DNA of 34,558 bases, from contig CAUTLL010000001.1 of assembly GCA_963539275.1 (NCBI GenBank), positions 1 through 34,558 of the forward strand, written 5' to 3'. The notes beneath the pieces were generated by a model. It saw only the letters and a program-made list of their open reading frames with translations. It was not told the origin of the DNA and did not search any database. A program made the translations under genes and the position numbers. Each line of letters begins with the position of its first letter. The stretch's first letter is position 1. Positions 2,998-34,558 of this stretch are shown piece after piece. The stretch is from an uncultured Flavobacteriaceae bacterium. Lineage in GTDB: Bacteria > Bacteroidota > Bacteroidia > Flavobacteriales > Weeksellaceae.

Positions 2998-3098
2998 AAA
3001 AAAGGCAAGCTATCTACATCACACCGCTACGACCGATTACCTTTGCTGTGTTCCCACCCTGGAGGATTTTCAGGAGCTGGTTGTGTAGGACTTGCCAC
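2998..3098 (-). ncRNA. ffs: signal recognition particle RNA (small bacterial 4.5S type)
   Basis: A GC-enriched island of about 100 nt in an AT-rich spacer. The minus strand forms a long hairpin, GGCAAG...CUUGCC plus a U6 tail. Its apex reads AGG-GUG-GGAA-CAC-AGCA (plus 3044..3060). That aligns position for position with E. coli 4.5S domain IV, AGG-UCC-GGAA-GGA-AGCA, with a compensatory stem change. A TATATTTG box lies just upstream. The ends are good to about 5 nt. Confidence 0.8.
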
Positions 3099-3100
3099 TG

Positions 3101-3108
3101 CAAATATA
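3101..3108 (-). promoter_or_regulatory. Bacteroidota -7 promoter box (TATATTTG) for the SRP RNA
   Basis: Exact TAnnTTTG match on the minus strand, a few nt upstream of the 5' arm of the SRP hairpin. Confidence 0.55.
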
Positions 3109-19448: not shown

Positions 19449-19520
19449 AGACCCATGGTGTAATTGGTAACACACCTGATTTTGGTTCAGTCATTCGGGG
19501 TTCGAGTCCCTGTGGGTCTA
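19449..19520 (+). tRNA. tRNA-Gln (anticodon UUG)
   Basis: Folded by hand. The acceptor stem AGACCCA/TGGGTCT is 7 bp and U8 and A14 are present. The D stem is GTGT/ACAC. The anticodon stem is CCTGA/TCAGT with loop TT-TTG-GT. The T arm is CGGGG-TTCGAGT-CCCTG and the discriminator is A. No CCA is encoded. Confidence 0.9.
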
Positions 19521-19750
19521 CAAAATGGCCAATTAAGGCACAAGAAATTAACAAACAGCTTATTTTAAACGGTTTATAGAAGTTTAATTAAGTTGTTTTT
19601 TGTTTTATATGACACCGAAAAAGACACAGAGCTATTTTTTTAGTGTCATATTTTGCAAAAGGCATCTTCAAAATATTGAATTGAAGCATGTTAGAGCAAT
19701 TTCATTCCGTAGAAAATTTACAGGCACTCTCTAAAAAGATATATGTGCCT

Positions 19751-20866
19751 ATGAATGTAAGATTTTATTTAAAAAATTATCTCAACAAAGAGGGAAAATC
19801 CCAAGTTTACCTTAGTATATCTTCTGAAGGTAAGAGAGATAGACTTCCATTGGATGTTTTTGTGCGACCAGAGAACTGGGATAAAACGAAACAAAGAGCA
19901 AAAGTAAAGACCGAGAATAGCGATACGATTAATCTTATTTTAGATCAAGCATTTGCTAAGATTTCTGATATCCGAGTGCATTATCGCTTATCTAAAATAC
20001 ATCTTTCAAGAGAAAAATTGATAGAGGAATTTCAGAATAAAACTCCCAATTATGATTTTATTTCTTTTATGAAATATCATACTGATAATTTAATATTAAA
20101 ACCTAATTCTTATAGAAAACATCAATGCGAGATAGGAAAATTATCGGAGTATAAGAAGTTTATTCCTTTTTCAGAAATAACATTGGAGTTTATTAATAAT
20201 TATAGAGGATATTTATCCAAAATTAAAAAGAATGCTCCGACAACCATAGCCTCATCAATAAAAATTATCTTGAAATTTTTGAAGATAGCAAAAAAGTATG
20301 GAGTATTTCTAAATGTAGATCTATCGGATATTAAACCTGGAAGTACCAAAGGCAATAGAATCAATCTCACGATAGAGGAAGTAGATCGGTTAAAATCTTA
20401 TTATGATAGCGGATTTATAAAGCCACATCATCGCTTAGCATTAGGATATTTTTTATTTTCTTGTTATACATCTTTGCGGATTTCAGATATTAAGAAATTG
20501 AAAAGAGAGGATTTGGGAGGCAATACCATCACTTATTTAAGTACTAAAACCAATCATAATCATACCCTTATCATCAATAAAACAGCGAAAAAAATTCTTA
20601 ATGAAAATGAAGATTTATTTATAAAATGGGTAAGTGATCAGAAAATAAATCAGGCATTGAAAGAAATAGCGAGTATTTGTAGCATAAAGAAAAAAGTACA
20701 TTTCCATGTTGCGAGGCATTCTTTTGCGACCAATTTTCTCCGCAAAGGAGGTAAAATAGAAGACTTGCAAACTATTATGGATCATAGCGATATTCAGACT
20801 ACCATGGTCTATGTTCACATCGTAAAAGCAGAGAGTATGCAGAGCATGTATCTAATGGATGATTAA
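19751..20866 (+). CDS. site-specific tyrosine recombinase / phage integrase (Bacteroidota type with an N-terminal arm-binding domain)
   Basis: The C-terminal catalytic signature is ..LRISD.., HVARHSFAT, ..DLQTIMDHSDIQTTMVYVH (R..H-x-x-R..H..Y). The N-terminus MNVRFYLK.. is typical. The track start 19688 is an upstream alternative. Confidence 0.9.
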   Translation: MNVRFYLKNYLNKEGKSQVYLSISSEGKRDRLPLDVFVRPENWDKTKQRAKVKTENSDTINLILDQAFAKISDIRVHYRLSKIHLSREKLIEEFQNKTPNYDFISFMKYHTDNLILKPNSYRKHQCEIGKLSEYKKFIPFSEITLEFINNYRGYLSKIKKNAPTTIASSIKIILKFLKIAKKYGVFLNVDLSDIKPGSTKGNRINLTIEEVDRLKSYYDSGFIKPHHRLALGYFLFSCYTSLRISDIKKLKREDLGGNTITYLSTKTNHNHTLIINKTAKKILNENEDLFIKWVSDQKINQALKEIASICSIKKKVHFHVARHSFATNFLRKGGKIEDLQTIMDHSDIQTTMVYVHIVKAESMQSMYLMDD

Positions 20867-20870
20867 AATA

Positions 20871-20907
20871 ATTGACACCAATTAAATAAAAATTGGTGTC
20901 AATTTTA
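20871..20907. terminator. bidirectional terminator between the integrase and the convergent small-gene pair
   Basis: Perfect 13-bp stem ATTGACACCAATT/AATTGGTGTCAAT with loop AAATAAA, in AT-rich flanks. Confidence 0.8.
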
Positions 20908-20909
20908 TA

Positions 20910-21149
20910 TTAGGATAAATTATTGATGAGTAGCCCAGTTTCTTCGGGGTAATATTCTAGGATAAATGAGAGCCTTAAAGAGAGTGAGACCACTTCTTTT
21001 AGGATAGTTTTTTCTCTTTCTGTGATATTCCCAAAGTTAGGCAAATGCTCTGTTTCTATTTCATAGAGAGTTTTTTGGACATCATTGTCTTTGAATAGCT
21101 CCATTTGGCAACTGAACCACCAGCTGAAATCGTCATTGAATTTTTCCAT
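20910..21149 (-). CDS. acidic 79-aa phage protein, proximal copy of a duplicated gene
   Basis: The ORF is translationally coupled to the upstream gene by a TAATG overlap. It is near-identical to residues 1-77 of ORF 32407..32700. Confidence 0.7.
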   Translation of the reverse strand: MEKFNDDFSWWFSCQMELFKDNDVQKTLYEIETEHLPNFGNITEREKTILKEVVSLSLRLSFILEYYPEETGLLINNLS

Positions 21150-21419
21150 TACGCATCATATTTTTGGTGAAACAATCTGAGCATATTCTTGTAAGCCTGA
21201 GGGAAAGAACTGCCCCATGCATGGGCTCTTTGTGTAGGAGAGATGAAAGCCACCTTGTAGATTCCTTTATCACAGCTCATCTGGAGATGCCCACCATACA
21301 GCCTTGCAAATGCCAGTGGCTCTATGAGTTTTTCTTCTCTTTTGAATAAACTTCTTAAACTCTCTAAAAGTGTAACTTTTCTGCTTTGCACCGCATTACT
21401 ATTCTTCGTGCGTGGTGCT
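20912..21419. repeat. long direct repeat, copy 1 (partner at 32463..32970, offset 11551 bp)
   Basis: Compared by eye, there are 5 mismatches, all within 20912-20988. Positions 20989-21419 (431 bp) appear identical to 32540-32970. Confidence 0.9.
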
Positions 21420-21439
21420 TTGGTTTGATTGTTAAGCAT
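21149..21439 (-). CDS. basic 96-aa phage protein, proximal copy of a duplicated gene
   Basis: The ORF starts MLNNQTKAPRTKNSNAVQSRKV... The track start TTG 21448 is probably spurious. ATG 21439 corresponds to the ATG of the distal copy. The two proteins are identical from residue 8 onward to ORF 32700..32990. Confidence 0.7.
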   Translation of the reverse strand: MLNNQTKAPRTKNSNAVQSRKVTLLESLRSLFKREEKLIEPLAFARLYGGHLQMSCDKGIYKVAFISPTQRAHAWGSSFPQAYKNMLRLFHQKYDA

Positions 21440-21607
21440 ATTAATCAATTAAAAATTTATTTCCCAAATACAAAAAACCCCGTTAGGAGGTGCTTAACAA
21501 TCATTTAGGGAAACGATTTGTGTAGCCTCTCGACTACACCCTCCTTCAGGGTTATAATATAAACAAATAAAAAAGTTTTCTAGGGATTTTCCCTAAACAT
21601 TGTTAAG
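21440..21607 (-). promoter_or_regulatory. structured 5' leader or cis-antisense RNA with a terminator-like end, proximal version
   Basis: Three segments on the minus strand define it: A at 21610..21588, anti-segment B at 21513..21490, and start region C at 21439..21422. B pairs with either A or C. The long-range helix CCC-UGAA-GGAGG / CCUCC-UAAC-GGGG is followed by U6 (P at 21551..21539, P' at 21490..21478). An inner hairpin capped by GAGA lies at 21539..21520. The TSS is not determinable from sequence. Confidence 0.55.
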
Positions 21608-21612
21608 CATTG

Positions 21613-21620
21613 CAAATATA
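21613..21620 (-). promoter_or_regulatory. -7 promoter box (TATATTTG) driving the proximal leader and gene pair
   Basis: Exact TAnnTTTG match directly after a terminator. The 23-nt context TGCAAATATA[A/G]GAATAAAAAAAT is shared with 33141..33163. Confidence 0.55.
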
Positions 21621-21623
21621 AGA

Positions 21624-21654
21624 ATAAAAAAATTCCCTGCAAGTTTTTGCAGGG
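21624..21654 (-). terminator. intrinsic terminator after the 58-aa ORF
   Basis: The minus strand reads CCCTGCAA-AAAC-TTGCAGGG followed by AATTTTTTT. The same hairpin recurs at 34532..34551. Confidence 0.8.
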
Positions 21655-21660
21655 GAAATT

Positions 21661-21837
21661 TTAGTTTTTTTTATGGTCTATATTATGGAGTAATAATCCC
21701 AGCAGACCAATAGTAAAGATGATTTTTCCTAGAACAAGGTAGTCTTCTTGCTGTGGCTTACGCCCTACAAAAACCAATAAAAGCCCTACAAAGAATAAAA
21801 AAATGTAGGTTATTCTTATAATAACATTTTGTATCAT
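21661..21837 (-). CDS. 58-aa two-TM membrane protein (below the ORF-track length cutoff)
   Basis: Hand translation gives MIQNVIIRITYIFLFFVGLLLVFVGRKPQQEDYLVLGKIIFTIGLLGLLLHNIDHKKN*. The ATG lies 1 nt after the TGA of the upstream ORF (TGATATG). A terminator follows the stop. Confidence 0.55.
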   Translation of the reverse strand: MIQNVIIRITYIFLFFVGLLLVFVGRKPQQEDYLVLGKIIFTIGLLGLLLHNIDHKKN

Positions 21838-21838
21838 A

Positions 21839-22195
21839 TCAATTTATTTTTAATAAGCGGTAAATAAACTCTATCACTTTCTCTGTATGGTATCCAATGA
21901 CAGAAGCCACCACTATACCTAAAAAAGCCAAAGCCCATTTTTTTAGTCGGTTCTGTGGCTTATCCATTCTCTCCGCTTCTTTTATATTTTTTACTTTCAG
22001 ACCTTTTTCTGTGAGCCTTATTTTATTGTCATCGCGGTTTTCTATTAACCCCAAGGCGAAGAGCTTCATTTTCACTTGCCTAAAATATCTCTCATCATTT
22101 TTTACCAACTGCTGATAATACACTGCGGATATTCTTCCTCCTTTTTCTTGGGTTTTCTGCAAGACTTCATTACAGAGATTTTCTAATTCTTCCAT
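21839..22195 (-). CDS. winged-helix-like protein with a C-terminal membrane anchor (118 aa from ATG 22195; track start 22234)
   Basis: The sequence MEELENLCNEVLQKTQEKGGRISAVYYQQLV...LGLIENRDDNKIRLTEKGLKV has a wHTH-like pattern. A C-terminal hydrophobic helix WALAFLGIVVASVIGY follows. A TATCTTTG box lies upstream at about 22283..22290 on the minus strand. Confidence 0.6.
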   Translation of the reverse strand: MEELENLCNEVLQKTQEKGGRISAVYYQQLVKNDERYFRQVKMKLFALGLIENRDDNKIRLTEKGLKVKNIKEAERMDKPQNRLKKWALAFLGIVVASVIGYHTEKVIEFIYRLLKIN

Positions 22196-22361: not shown

Positions 22362-22607
22362 TTATAGCTGGTTGGCAGTCTTGCGGATACGCTCCGAGAG
22401 GTCATATAATGCCCCTTTGAACTGCTCCATTTCTTCGTGAGAAAATCCACCAGCATTTCCGTTTCCATCTATACCATCTATTTTATGGTATATCCAAGAT
22501 GGAGAGCGGTCAAAATATTTTTTAGACAATTTAGCCCAAGATATATCAAGAGCAATATCATTTAATGTTTCCTTTACAGATTGTTTTTTACTAGCAGTTA
22601 TTTCCAT
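22362..22607 (-). CDS. 81-aa hypothetical phage protein
   Basis: A clean ATG ORF bracketed by terminators on both sides. I recognise no family with confidence. Confidence 0.6.
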   Translation of the reverse strand: MEITASKKQSVKETLNDIALDISWAKLSKKYFDRSPSWIYHKIDGIDGNGNAGGFSHEEMEQFKGALYDLSERIRKTANQL

Positions 22608-32158: not shown

Positions 32159-32456
32159 AGACCACCCACTTGAATACTCTACCTGTCTCTATTTTTTCGT
32201 ATTCAGGAGGGAGATTCTTTTCTTTATCTCCCTCAAAAATACAAATTTTATCGTAAAGTATTTCTAATTCTTGCCGAAAATTAAGCTCCTTCATCACTTC
32301 ATAAATATCATGCTCACCGATGGGCTCATTGGGGATAATCCCTTGCATCATCGTTAAGATAGACTGCGTGGTGAGTAGCCTTTTTTCTTCTTTGGAGCCT
32401 ACCTGGTTATAATACCTCAGGAATAGCTCCTTGATGATTTCCTTGTAATCTTCCAT
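32136..32456 (-). CDS. 106-aa hypothetical phage protein
   Basis: An ATG ORF in the operon, overlapping the downstream ORF by 23 nt. Confidence 0.65.
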   Translation of the reverse strand: MEDYKEIIKELFLRYYNQVGSKEEKRLLTTQSILTMMQGIIPNEPIGEHDIYEVMKELNFRQELEILYDKICIFEGDKEKNLPPEYEKIETGRVFKWVVYEKNNGI

Positions 32457-32700
32457 AGTATGAGGATATATTATTGATGAGTAGCCCAGCTTCTTCGGGG
32501 TAATATTTTAGGATAAATGAGAGCCTTAAAGAGAGCGAAACCACTTCTTTTAGGATAGTTTTTTCTCTTTCTGTGATATTCCCAAAGTTAGGCAAATGCT
32601 CTGTTTCTATTTCATAGAGAGTTTTTTGGACATCATTGTCTTTGAATAGCTCCATTTGGCAACTGAACCACCAGCTGAAATCGTCATTGAATTTTTCCAT
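32407..32700 (-). CDS. acidic 97-aa phage protein, distal copy of the duplicated gene with an 18-aa C-terminal extension
   Basis: Same as 20910..21149, except that the stop TAA is replaced by TCA. The frame therefore runs 50 nt into the next gene. Confidence 0.65.
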   Translation of the reverse strand: MEKFNDDFSWWFSCQMELFKDNDVQKTLYEIETEHLPNFGNITEREKTILKEVVSLSLRLSFILKYYPEEAGLLINNISSYYGRLQGNHQGAIPEVL

Positions 32701-32970
32701 TACGCATCATATTTTTGGTGAAACAATCTGAGCATATTCTTGTAAGCCTGAGGGAAAGAACTGCCCCATGCATGGGCTCTTTGTGTAGGAGAGATGAAAG
32801 CCACCTTGTAGATTCCTTTATCACAGCTCATCTGGAGATGCCCACCATACAGCCTTGCAAATGCCAGTGGCTCTATGAGTTTTTCTTCTCTTTTGAATAA
32901 ACTTCTTAAACTCTCTAAAAGTGTAACTTTTCTGCTTTGCACCGCATTACTATTCTTCGTGCGTGGTGCT
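32463..32970. repeat. long direct repeat, copy 2 (partner at 20912..21419)
   Basis: See copy 1. Confidence 0.9.
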
Positions 32971-32990
32971 GGTTTGATGATGTTTAGCAT
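32700..32990 (-). CDS. basic 96-aa phage protein, distal copy of the duplicated gene
   Basis: The ORF starts MLNIIKPAPRTKNSNAVQSRKV... It is coupled to the next gene by a TAATG overlap. Confidence 0.7.
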   Translation of the reverse strand: MLNIIKPAPRTKNSNAVQSRKVTLLESLRSLFKREEKLIEPLAFARLYGGHLQMSCDKGIYKVAFISPTQRAHAWGSSFPQAYKNMLRLFHQKYDA

Positions 32991-33137
32991 TTTATATTAA
33001 TTAAAAATAAAAAATCCCCGATAATGTGGATTGTCGCTAAACATCATCAATCAGAAAAAGATTAATAACCACACTTCACGGGGAAGACTTTTATTTCGTT
33101 AAAATTATATCAGATTATTTCTGATGATGATATTTAG
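32991..33137 (-). promoter_or_regulatory. structured 5' leader or cis-antisense RNA with a terminator-like end, distal version
   Basis: Three segments on the minus strand define it: A at 33140..33121, anti-segment B at 33054..33035, and start region C at 32990..32969. The long-range helix CCCCG-UGAAG-UGUGG / CCACA-UUAU-CGGGG (33084..33069 / 33029..33016) is followed by AUUUUUUAUUUUU. The architecture matches 21440..21607 but the sequence differs. Confidence 0.55.
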
Positions 33138-33142
33138 CACTG

Positions 33143-34486: not shown

Positions 34487-34513
34487 AGAGTATATAAAAG
34501 TTTAATTGGTGTA

Positions 34514-34521
34514 CAAATATA
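34514..34521 (-). promoter_or_regulatory. -7 promoter box (TATATTTG) for the 352-aa/75-aa cassette
   Basis: Exact TAnnTTTG match 28 nt upstream of ATG 34486, directly after a terminator. Confidence 0.55.
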
Positions 34522-34523
34522 TA

Positions 34524-34553
34524 AAAAAATTCCCTGCAAGTTTTTGCAGGGGG
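34524..34553 (-). terminator. intrinsic terminator of the unseen gene to the right of the window
   Basis: The minus strand reads CCCCTGCAA-AAAC-TTGCAGGG followed by AATTTTTTT. It repeats the 21624..21654 element. Confidence 0.75.
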
Positions 34554-34558
34554 AAATT

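Follow-up and report, generated by a model that had tools for sequence, protein, structure and literature searches.

Why should a small prophage gene be preceded by a leader in which one internal segment can pair with either of two others, one of them lying over the start codon? We asked this question of a 34,558-nucleotide stretch from an uncultured Flavobacteriaceae bacterium (positions 1 to 34,558 of contig CAUTLL010000001.1, assembly GCA_963539275.1), hereafter the window. Here, an untranslated leader of about 170 bases precedes a gene for a protein of 96 amino acids (aa; 21149..21439, minus strand), and a paralogous leader and gene lie 11.55 kb upstream; we refer to the two copies as proximal and distal. 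We consider it fairly probable that these leaders are members of an undescribed family of 5′-leader RNA switches with address-specific RNA-RNA control in Bacteroidota prophages. The structural claim is strong and a switch acting in cis is well supported. The claim of an immunity-like function is moderate, and a trans-acting, immunity-like role, as suggested by the sequences, is plausible.

The proximal leader contains three mutually related segments on the minus strand. Segment A (AUGCUUAACAAUGUUUAGGGAAA, 21610-21588), at the predicted 5′ end of the RNA, is complementary over 22 bp to segment B (UUUCCCUAAAUGAUUGUUAAGCA(C), 21513-21491/90). B is in turn complementary to segment C (AUGCUUAACAAUCAAACC, 21439-21422), which covers the AUG (21439-21437) and the next four codons and contributes positions 21438-21426 to a 13-bp pairing. 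The first 12 nt of A copy the start-codon region C, and an 11-nt core, TGCTTAACAAT, is found at exactly three sites in the 34.5-kb window, namely A, B (on the opposite strand) and C. B lies in the loop of a two-tier stem formed by P (AACCCUG, bulged A, GGAGGG; 21540..21553) and P′ (CCUCCU-AA-CGGGG, with U6 at 21477-21472; together 21472..21490), and abuts P′. By sequence, this stem (CCCUG/CGGGG plus GGAGG(G)/CCUCC(U), then U6) qualifies as an intrinsic terminator, with an atypical, structured loop of about 50 nt. Inside the loop is a further hairpin with a GNRA cap, GUGUAGUC-GAGA-GGCUACAC (21520..21539).

All coordinates and sequences that a first-pass annotation of this DNA had assigned to A, B, C, the GAGA hairpin, the long-range stem and U6 are correct on the minus strand, and RNAduplex bears out the complementarity, with helices of 22 bp (A:B) and 13 bp (B:C). 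The annotated scheme of three segments holds for each of them and is refined to four interacting elements by H1 (21597-21579, minus strand), a local hairpin of 8 bp between the 3′ half of A (UUUAGGGA) and the adjacent downstream sequence UCCCUAGA. With H1 formed, the first 12-13 nt of A stay unpaired; H1 also competes with the 5′ half of B for A. A small equivalent hairpin is present in nearly all of the 23 leader types described below, and in a terminator scan the proximal H1 together with the following U-run resembles a small terminator. Sequence reading also revealed a −7 promoter box of the Bacteroidota type, TATATTTG (21613..21620, minus strand), ending two bases before A; the promoter consensus in Bacteroides and Flavobacterium is TAnnTTTG. 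Because this box ends just before A, we infer that the RNA begins at, or 1-3 nt from, the first base of A.

The distal leader (33140-32974, minus strand; RNA nt 1 at 33140, ATG at 32990) has the same order of parts as the proximal one and different A/B/C and stem sequences, as had been proposed. Its parts, all on the minus strand, are A′ (33140-33118), H1′ (about 33125-33109), P (33084-33069), B′ (33057-33033), P′ with U6 (to 33009) and C′ (32988-32974), and its core is found within the window only at its own A′, B′ and C′. The distal gene occupies 32700-32990. Comparison of the two genes agrees with the earlier statement that they are identical downstream of codon 8; identity extends from codon 8 over about 430 nt and is followed by approximately 98% identity up to 20908 and 32459, respectively. 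On the upstream side, the promoter context TGCAAATATA[A/G]GAATAAAAAAAT has exactly two occurrences in the window. The conserved-variable-conserved mosaic between the two copies is therefore real, and the first protein codons do vary in step with A and B.

Relatives were collected by exact-protein look-ups and by scans of IMG/VR with alignments of distant homologues, which together gave 56 loci. From these, 37 leaders (metagenomic prophages and IMG/VR viral contigs) were extracted, representing 23 distinct A/B/C triplets. The genome collection contained a single related locus, in a metagenome-assembled genome of an uncultured Flavobacteriaceae bacterium. No close relatives were found among viral contigs with a single-protein query, in the phage GenBank collection by blastn, among metagenome contigs with an alignment query, or among viral and metagenome contigs with an exact 27-mer of the coding region. 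A TAnnTTTG box was located immediately upstream of A in all 37 leaders. Every leader also kept the architecture, with A at the RNA start, B at about nt 80-135, and the stem and U-run right after B, while leader length varied from 150 to 205 nt. The near-perfect A:B duplex measured 22-25 bp, and pairing of C began at position +1 or +2 of the AUG and spanned 12-15 nt in all types. Relatives with leaders in which A, B and C were not mutually complementary had been named as evidence that would speak against the scheme; in all 23 types the three segments are mutually complementary, the weaker ones being L007 (reduced A:B) and L047 (reduced B:C).

Covariation among these relatives bore out the compensatory changes that had been noted in A:B, B:C and the terminator stem between the two copies. 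In five alignable leaders, pairing was kept in 96% of A:B and 100% of B:C, and both partners had changed in 7 of 15 A:B pairs and in 6 of 12 B:C pairs. The covariation scores of both helices were reached by none of 500 shuffles, and controls with a slid partner paired at 31-45%; RNAalifold recovered A:B independently. The terminator and inner hairpin showed four compensatory pairs, a result reached by one of 500 shuffles, and the stems were fully re-coded between leader families (GGAGG/CCUCC, UGUGG/CCACA, GGUGU/ACACC and GUGG/CCAC). The helices contained 42 G.U wobbles and only 3 A.C mismatches. This excess points to the RNA of the minus strand as the selected object.

Several further features of the segments were observed among the relatives. 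The G.U wobbles are distributed unevenly, with 36 in A:B and 6 in B:C, and in most types A carries U, sometimes G, where C has C or A (for example at 33134, where distal A′ has U and C′ has C). At the DNA level A is thus a degenerate rather than an exact copy of C, and A:B is slightly weakened; the U bias of A might avoid a perfect direct repeat or tune the switch. Between L007 (leader upstream of 6001) and L027 (upstream of 1315), B and C are changed (CUAAAA to UUCAAA) and A keeps the L027-type sequence, so that A:B in L007 is down to 13 pairs and −16.4 kcal/mol; this natural A-mismatch variant is either a recombinant or an intermediate in address switching. The inner hairpin occurs with a GNRA cap (GAGA or GUAA) and compensatory stem changes in the alpha and gamma leader families (noted in L007, L012, L023, L024, L027, L037 and L041) and is missing from the beta (distal-type) and delta families. 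The tetraloop may make a tertiary contact.

The sequence of A, B and C appears arbitrary but matched within each leader, so it would act as an address, of which there are at least 23. Across the 23 types, B:C pairing averaged −18.8 kcal/mol for cognate and −7.7 kcal/mol for non-cognate combinations, and A:B pairing −28.7 and −10.0 kcal/mol. The cognate partner was the strongest in 20 of 23 rows of both matrices and in 22 (B:C) and 21 (A:B) of 23 columns. For the two leaders of the window, the cross terms were about −10 kcal/mol, compared with cognate values of −17.8 and −23.7 kcal/mol. The closest pairs of leaders were informative about how addresses change. The proximal leader and L005 differed at 6 of 58 paired positions and at 1 of 131 others, the change being GCUUAAC to GUUCAAC in A and C and GUUAAGC to GUUGAAC in B; L031 and L044 differed at 5 of 62 paired positions and 1 of 147 others; and L028 and L035 were separated by one three-way change, through which Thr becomes Arg at codon 4. 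The reverse case is L022 and L031, which nearly kept the address (2 of 62 positions differ) on a scaffold that is 27% diverged (42 of 157). Judged from these comparisons, A/B/C behaves as a unit that may be preserved or switched whole, independently of the scaffold. The suggestion that the variable segments are a specificity (immunity-like) determinant is strengthened as regards specificity by cognate pairing far above non-cognate pairing, three-way changes and addresses kept on diverged scaffolds; its immunity part is hypothetical.

Energetics of the helices were examined next to their competing folds. In the proximal leader, the A:B duplex reached −27.9 kcal/mol and B:C −17.8 kcal/mol by RNAduplex, and none of 500 shuffles of A or C reached the observed energies. 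State energies were obtained by constrained folding, with the proximal RNA ending either at the U-run or through codon 13. In the shorter RNA, the A:B state had −45.6 and the terminator −43.2 kcal/mol, and the minimum free energy (MFE) structure (−45.8 kcal/mol) also contained A:B. In the longer RNA, the terminator was the MFE structure (−53.7 kcal/mol), followed by A:B (−52.8) and B:C (−48.5). The proximal A:B, terminator and B:C states thus span about 5 kcal/mol, in agreement with the proposal, for which this check had been named beforehand, that the helices are energetically competitive. For the full-length distal RNA, the MFE structure itself contains B:C. Equilibrium folding of RNA prefixes showed that A:B enters the MFE structure once B is made and persists past the U-run in 10 of 12 leader types. 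The terminator form was the predicted MFE structure in two types only, L007 and L028. In delta-type leaders (L020 and L022), an extra hairpin is possible in read-through RNA, where a downstream GUUUUCGUGG/GUAG offers an alternative partner to the U-run and the 3′ terminator arm; the two leaders of the window have no counterpart of it.

Removal of the 5′ end altered these folds. When the first 40-44 nt were deleted, all 23 types folded the two-tier stem, with 11-20 pairs, enclosing B and abutting the U-rich tract. The 3′ half of B was then exposed, with an unpaired probability of 0.6-0.9, compared to about 0.0-0.05 in the intact leader of most types; for the proximal leader, the last 8 nt of B were unpaired with a probability of 0.87 in RNA without nt 1-44 and 0.02 in the intact leader. 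Net binding in trans was calculated as duplex energy plus opening energies, given that nested RNAcofold cannot represent a contact between a loop and its target. With these opening costs included, B-containing RNA lacking A had a mean net binding of −11.8 kcal/mol to cognate C and −17.0 kcal/mol to nascent A.

Based on these features, we propose the following switch. Transcription would start at the TAnnTTTG promoter and make A the 5′ end of the RNA; B would be held inside the loop of the two-tier stem and U-run, which resembles an intrinsic terminator, and C would comprise the start codon and about four further codons. In the ON state, A:B pairing over 22 bp would enclose the 5′ arm of the terminator in a nested fold and block termination, C would be free, and the 96-aa gene would be transcribed and translated. 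In the OFF state, A would be unavailable, H1 and the terminator would form, transcription would stop and the 3′ half of B would be exposed; in RNA that reads through, B would pair with C and occlude the start codon. Translation initiation in Bacteroidota lacks a strong Shine-Dalgarno interaction and depends on an unstructured start region, and therefore a 13-15-bp duplex over the AUG and first codons should be inhibitory. The terminated, possibly 5′-processed leader RNA containing B could then pair in trans with A and C of transcripts with the same address, and the resulting forced termination and translation block would amount to autogenous shut-off and cross-immunity. By binding nascent A, such an RNA would free B and P, favor the terminator and yield more of the same RNA. 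Different addresses would insulate co-resident copies and competing phages from each other.

Several observations weigh against this scheme or its trans-acting part. The intact terminated leader has a mean net binding to C of only −3.2 kcal/mol, because A locks B, and nested RNAcofold of the candidate small RNA with its targets gave small, non-specific gains, by a method that cannot show loop-target pairing. No conserved internal or antisense TAnnTTTG promoter was detected within the leaders; with B hidden by A, a trans RNA without A therefore needs processing, and trans action would need such a step or kinetic trapping. A:B and the terminator do not overlap in sequence and are exclusive only under nested folding. 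As A is at the free 5′ end and B abuts P′, a pseudoknot containing A:B and the terminator together is not sterically excluded, and A:B would then not antiterminate. The transcription start, terminator function, stable small RNA, exclusivity of A:B and terminator and action in trans are steps that we infer from the arrangement of the parts, next to segments, complementarity, covariation, energetics and orthogonality that are observed. Some non-cognate pairs approach cognate strength (for example L016/L028 and L022/L031), and in distant leader pairs A/B/C positions are no more variable than the rest, so the sequence-based case for diversifying selection comes from the closest leader pairs only. 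Covariance models did not place the leader in the C4, CI or IsrK families, and only chance-level matches to unrelated families were obtained. Finally, any target of the supposed 'immunity' is hypothetical.

No match for the 96-aa protein was found in Pfam, PHROG, NCBIfam or a PDB sequence search; the first three also gave none for the 97-aa protein encoded next to the distal copy. Homologues of the 96-aa protein form 28 close clusters in metagenomes, with about 20 more distant representatives, and all of them combine a conserved core with hypervariability of the first 7-20 residues. The AlphaFold model (mean predicted local distance difference test score, pLDDT, 80) has an alpha-beta-beta-beta-alpha topology with approximately 13 disordered N-terminal residues. 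Most of its top Foldseek matches in PDB are double-stranded RNA (dsRNA)-binding domains (DCL4, RDE-4, Staufen, RNase III dsRNA-binding domain (dsRBD), TRBP and ADAR2), with probabilities mostly of 0.8-1.0, target-normalised template modelling (TM) scores of about 0.4-0.55 and weak E-values of 0.07-1. Matches in BFVD include DRBM-domain proteins, again with weak E-values (0.007 or higher). Pfam dsrm did not match the protein even at E = 10, and an hhalign comparison of the family with the E. coli RNase III dsRBD gave a non-significant probability of 0.2%. The predicted model thus shows a weak resemblance to dsRNA-binding domains. If true, this resemblance would notably couple a dsRNA-binding product to the 22-bp leader duplex encoded directly ahead of its gene. 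The homologues also exposed an annotation problem, in that gene callers sometimes start the open reading frame (ORF) upstream and read in frame through the leader, as in the distant homologues P0031 and P0032. P0031 was called from segment A itself and carries its first four residues twice (MLTQ...MLTQVK); this artefact is independent evidence that A mimics C in a relative with 42% identity.

The principal alternative to address-specific control is refolding purely in cis, with H1, A:B, terminator and B:C as successive or alternative folds of one molecule that time or gate expression, either through a 5′-integrity gate (A is lost by decay and B clamps the start codon) or through kinetic attenuation by RNA polymerase speed. 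Three-way covariation would then be coupled covariation of the hok type, reportedly described for the hok family by Gultyaev, Franch and Gerdes in 1997, and address diversity would reflect drift and recombination. We regard this account as possible, though doubtful. All structural evidence fits it equally well; A blocks B within the same molecule, the metastable hairpin H1 is conserved, A/B/C evolve no faster than the scaffold in distant pairs, and no conserved second promoter for a separate antisense RNA was found. However, the closest pairs differ nearly only by coordinated three-site changes, their unpaired spacers being identical (10% of paired vs 1% of other positions differ in one pair, 8% vs 1% in another), contrary to neutral expectation, because triple-constrained sites should change slowest. 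Two copies with about 430 nt of identical coding sequence nevertheless have unrelated addresses, which at the sequence level suggests selection against address sharing, and address changes alter the protein N-terminus, a cost unexplained by drift alone. A protein could also take part: the 96-aa product may be a dsRNA binder that acts on A:B or B:C of its own leader in a feedback loop, the RNA address supplying specificity and the protein a generic duplex clamp, comparable to Rom on ColE1 RNA I/RNA II. Such protein-assisted autoregulation is compatible with either address-specific control or refolding in cis. The modelled topology with its PDB and BFVD matches and the near-perfect duplex of 22-25 bp directly upstream of the gene speak for it. 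Against these stand the weak Foldseek E-values, the lack of a Pfam dsrm or PDB sequence match, the hhalign result and the absence from the 96-aa sequence of KKxAK, the basic motif typical of dsRBDs; alpha-beta3-alpha is, moreover, a common small fold. We think this explanation unlikely.

Two other explanations are far less probable than these. Inverted-repeat-flanked switches are common in Bacteroidota, for example the invertible promoters of Bacteroidales, and since A and C are direct repeats with B inverted relative to both, and an integrase gene lies nearby (19688-20866), the segments might be operators or inverted repeats for a site-specific invertase. The ratio of 42 G.U to 3 A.C, however, makes sense only for RNA of this strand. 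Sites of a recombinase or repressor should follow the specificity of a protein, yet the repeats of close relatives are hypervariable. In addition, the placement follows RNA logic in 23 of 23 types (A at the transcript 5′ end, B in the terminator loop, C on the start codon), and none of the 37 leaders is a variant of inverted orientation. The G.U bias, the hypervariability and the lack of flipped variants led us to reject a DNA inversion or operator reading as highly improbable. A similarly slight chance is left to leader-peptide attenuation, in which translation of a leaderless mini-ORF starting at A (MLNNV* in the proximal leader) would pick the fold. In most types A opens with AUG or GUG; it also copies the gene's first codons and was used as an ORF start by one gene caller (P0031). 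Yet delta-type leaders begin with UUAGC, AAAGC, ACAGC or UCAGC and L007 with GUA; lacking a start codon at A in these leaders, this explanation was rejected as well. Length and sequence of the mini-ORF are also unconserved (5 to more than 50 codons), and the G of GUG is accounted for by an extra pair with B.

Address-specific control by a leader-encoded RNA has precedents in enterobacterial elements. In the satellite phage P4, seqC overlaps the translation start of the first gene and compensating changes in phiR73 set specificity; CI RNA is processed by RNase P and PNPase, and termination is reported to be factor-dependent. According to a passage in PMC4825925 (citing Ghisotti 1992, Sabbattini 1995 and Briani 2000), CI RNA pairs with seqA, which lies upstream of CI, and with seqC, which lies downstream of it, and causes premature termination; the same passage has the regulator made from the very leader transcript under its control. 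The leaders described here share with P4 the A, B, C order on one leader transcript and the complementarity of B to both flanks, and in all types the downstream target overlaps the translation initiation region, as in P4-type immunity. Differences are that B lies inside an intrinsic terminator and A at the extreme 5′ end, that cis A:B pairing is the most stable fold, would antiterminate and acts as an anti-antisense, that the host belongs to Bacteroidota, with no Shine-Dalgarno-driven initiation, and that each phage has two orthogonal copies. Compensating changes and predicted orthogonality are clear here and, as in P4 and P1, may set an immunity phenotype. Unlike in P4, P1 and IsrK, C is inside the coding sequence, so address changes alter the protein.

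The target of the c4 RNA of phage P1 overlaps with the point at which translation of the first gene begins, and another complementary copy is located upstream. P1 and P7 are reportedly heteroimmune through few compensating base changes (attributed to Citron and Schuster in 1990); likewise, two bases in each of the three segments separate the proximal leader from L005. The part of PMC8198154 concerned with c4 describes it as an antisense RNA that controls icd and ant and is itself encoded in the leader of the repressed operon (c4-icd-ant). In P1/P7 (immI, a1b1 / a′b′ / a2b2), c4 uses two short loops, whereas here one 22-bp segment is involved; no terminator encloses the c4 antisense region; and the regulated product here is not identifiable as an antirepressor, nor does the Rfam C4 model match. 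IsrK of Salmonella Gifsy-1 uses one promoter for a short, Rho-independently terminated RNA and a longer read-through mRNA, and the short form pairs with the long one in trans, remodels alternative helices and changes translatability (PMC4825925). A short terminated RNA acting on its own read-through isoform is also what we propose here. In contrast, the trans effect of IsrK is activating, it has no three-way address or reported specificity diversity, and it represents an enterobacterial family.

Likeness to hok/sok concerns RNA folding. In hok mRNA, a 5′ element has alternate partners (tac, fbi and ucb/dcb elements), a metastable 5′ hairpin forms first, long-range pairing holds the mRNA state until processing, and multi-way covariation reveals the alternative helices. 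An alternately pairing 5′ element, a metastable 5′ hairpin, long-range pairing and multi-way covariation are all found in the present leaders. Unlike in hok/sok, however, the product is a predicted soluble alpha/beta protein of 96 aa rather than a small hydrophobic toxin, the long-range partner is internal instead of at the 3′ end, and a terminator is built in; the leaders have no conserved opposite-strand TAnnTTTG box and do not classify as a type I toxin-antitoxin system. Attenuators of the trp, pyr, T-box and riboswitch kinds share mutually exclusive helices and an upstream segment that sequesters the terminator region. They differ in that the present leaders have no ligand- or tRNA-binding domain by Rfam and no conserved leader peptide, the antiterminator does not overlap a terminator arm, and the paired segments are hypervariable rather than conserved. 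No Rfam family matched the leader, either when the whole window was scanned with cmscan at gathering thresholds or when 20800-21900 was scanned permissively (E up to 10), and literature searches yielded no described Bacteroidota counterpart. The P4/P1-like layout of regulation is known; the Bacteroidota version and an RNA motif absent from Rfam are new. A sub-threshold Rfam match to the ribosomal S15 leader (21054-21155, plus strand; 25.5 bits against a gathering threshold of 39.5, E = 0.0016), in antisense orientation over the last part of the 96-aa gene, was judged to be due to chance.

The surroundings of the module are those of an integrated phage. The 34.5-kb window is AT-rich (33.8% G+C) and contains a Bacteroidales-type small signal recognition particle RNA (2999-3104) and tRNA-Gln (19449-19521), directly followed by a tyrosine integrase gene (19688-20866, plus strand) that is convergent to the leader module. 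Beyond 20.9 kb, every long ORF of the window is on the minus strand, among them tail-type genes and the gene for a tape-measure-like protein of 1366 aa, whose counterpart in a near-identical relative has a Pfam PhageMin_Tail match. Given tRNA-Gln, the adjoining integrase and the tail-type genes, the leader module therefore lies in a prophage integrated beside tRNA-Gln. No repressor gene was found within the part of the prophage covered by the window. In locus L027 (3315-6803), a second integrase-like gene, a ParE toxin pair and an HTH_3 + Peptidase_S24 (LexA/CI-like) repressor, the latter divergent from early-looking genes, are located past the integrase; these genes are probably a second element in tandem at the same site.

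Within the module, the second gene encodes a 79-aa protein (20910..21149, minus strand), a shortened paralogue of the 97-aa ORF at 32407-32700, whose product has a low-confidence structure model with four helices (pLDDT 69). A bidirectional terminator (20870-20904) separates the 79-aa gene from the convergent integrase. Segments 20908-21424 and 32459-32975 form a near-identical direct repeat of about 520 bp that brackets an 11.5-kb block of tail genes; it consists of most of the 96-aa gene and most of the next ORF, and identity ends exactly at the end of C. Most of the tail-gene block, the tape-measure gene included, is missing from the relative L016, consistent with recombination between such repeats.

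Upstream of the proximal module, a terminator scan revealed an intrinsic-terminator-like hairpin, CCCTGCAA-AACT-TGCAGGG with a T-run (21635..21654, minus strand), which on its sequence would insulate the module from the preceding 58-aa ORF. This hairpin cassette recurs at 34521-34558 and upstream of many related leaders. The third occurrence of terminator hairpin and TAnnTTTG cassette (34508-34558, minus strand) precedes a 352-aa ORF (phrog_10226, no assigned function) and has a short leader without A/B/C segments; the cassette is therefore reused, and only the 96-aa gene has the switch. Directly upstream of the proximal module, a slot (22362-22607) is occupied by variable small 'moron'-like genes, which in the window are DUF5053 and one 65-aa ORF. 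In relatives (L005, L016, L020 and L028), the equivalent slot holds a HicA toxin with a 125-137-aa partner, or NYN or BRCT-domain genes. By gene content, the leader module therefore adjoins a hotspot of accessory cargo.

In this study, we describe a leader RNA in which three matched segments, a metastable hairpin and a terminator-like stem are combined in front of a small prophage gene. Leader-encoded antisense immunity and autoregulation are known from a few enterobacterial elements (P4, P1/P7 and IsrK), and the same three-segment logic is now seen in prophages of Bacteroidota, where little is understood of small-RNA regulation and lysogeny control. With at least 23 mutually orthogonal addresses on a shared scaffold, the family amounts to a natural experiment on the evolution of RNA-RNA specificity, and the addresses are a possible toolkit of orthogonal terminator and translation switches for Bacteroidota. 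The hypervariable protein N-terminus is explained by a constraint at the RNA level, and ORFs called from segment A are flagged as annotation artefacts. Even if the switch acts only in cis, it is a new RNA motif, strongly supported by covariation and absent from Rfam. A broader and more tentative idea is that temperate phages of Bacteroidota use programmable, address-coded RNA-RNA control, in which a leader RNA would repress, through termination and occlusion of the start codon, only transcripts with the same 12-25-nt address, addresses diversify and a dsRNA-binding product reads the duplex. If so, addresses would diversify to escape cross-repression between phages and paralogous copies, an address that reaches into the coding sequence would drive hypervariability of the protein N-terminus, and P4/P1-style RNA immunity would have been invented independently in another phylum, with a built-in terminator and a protein partner.

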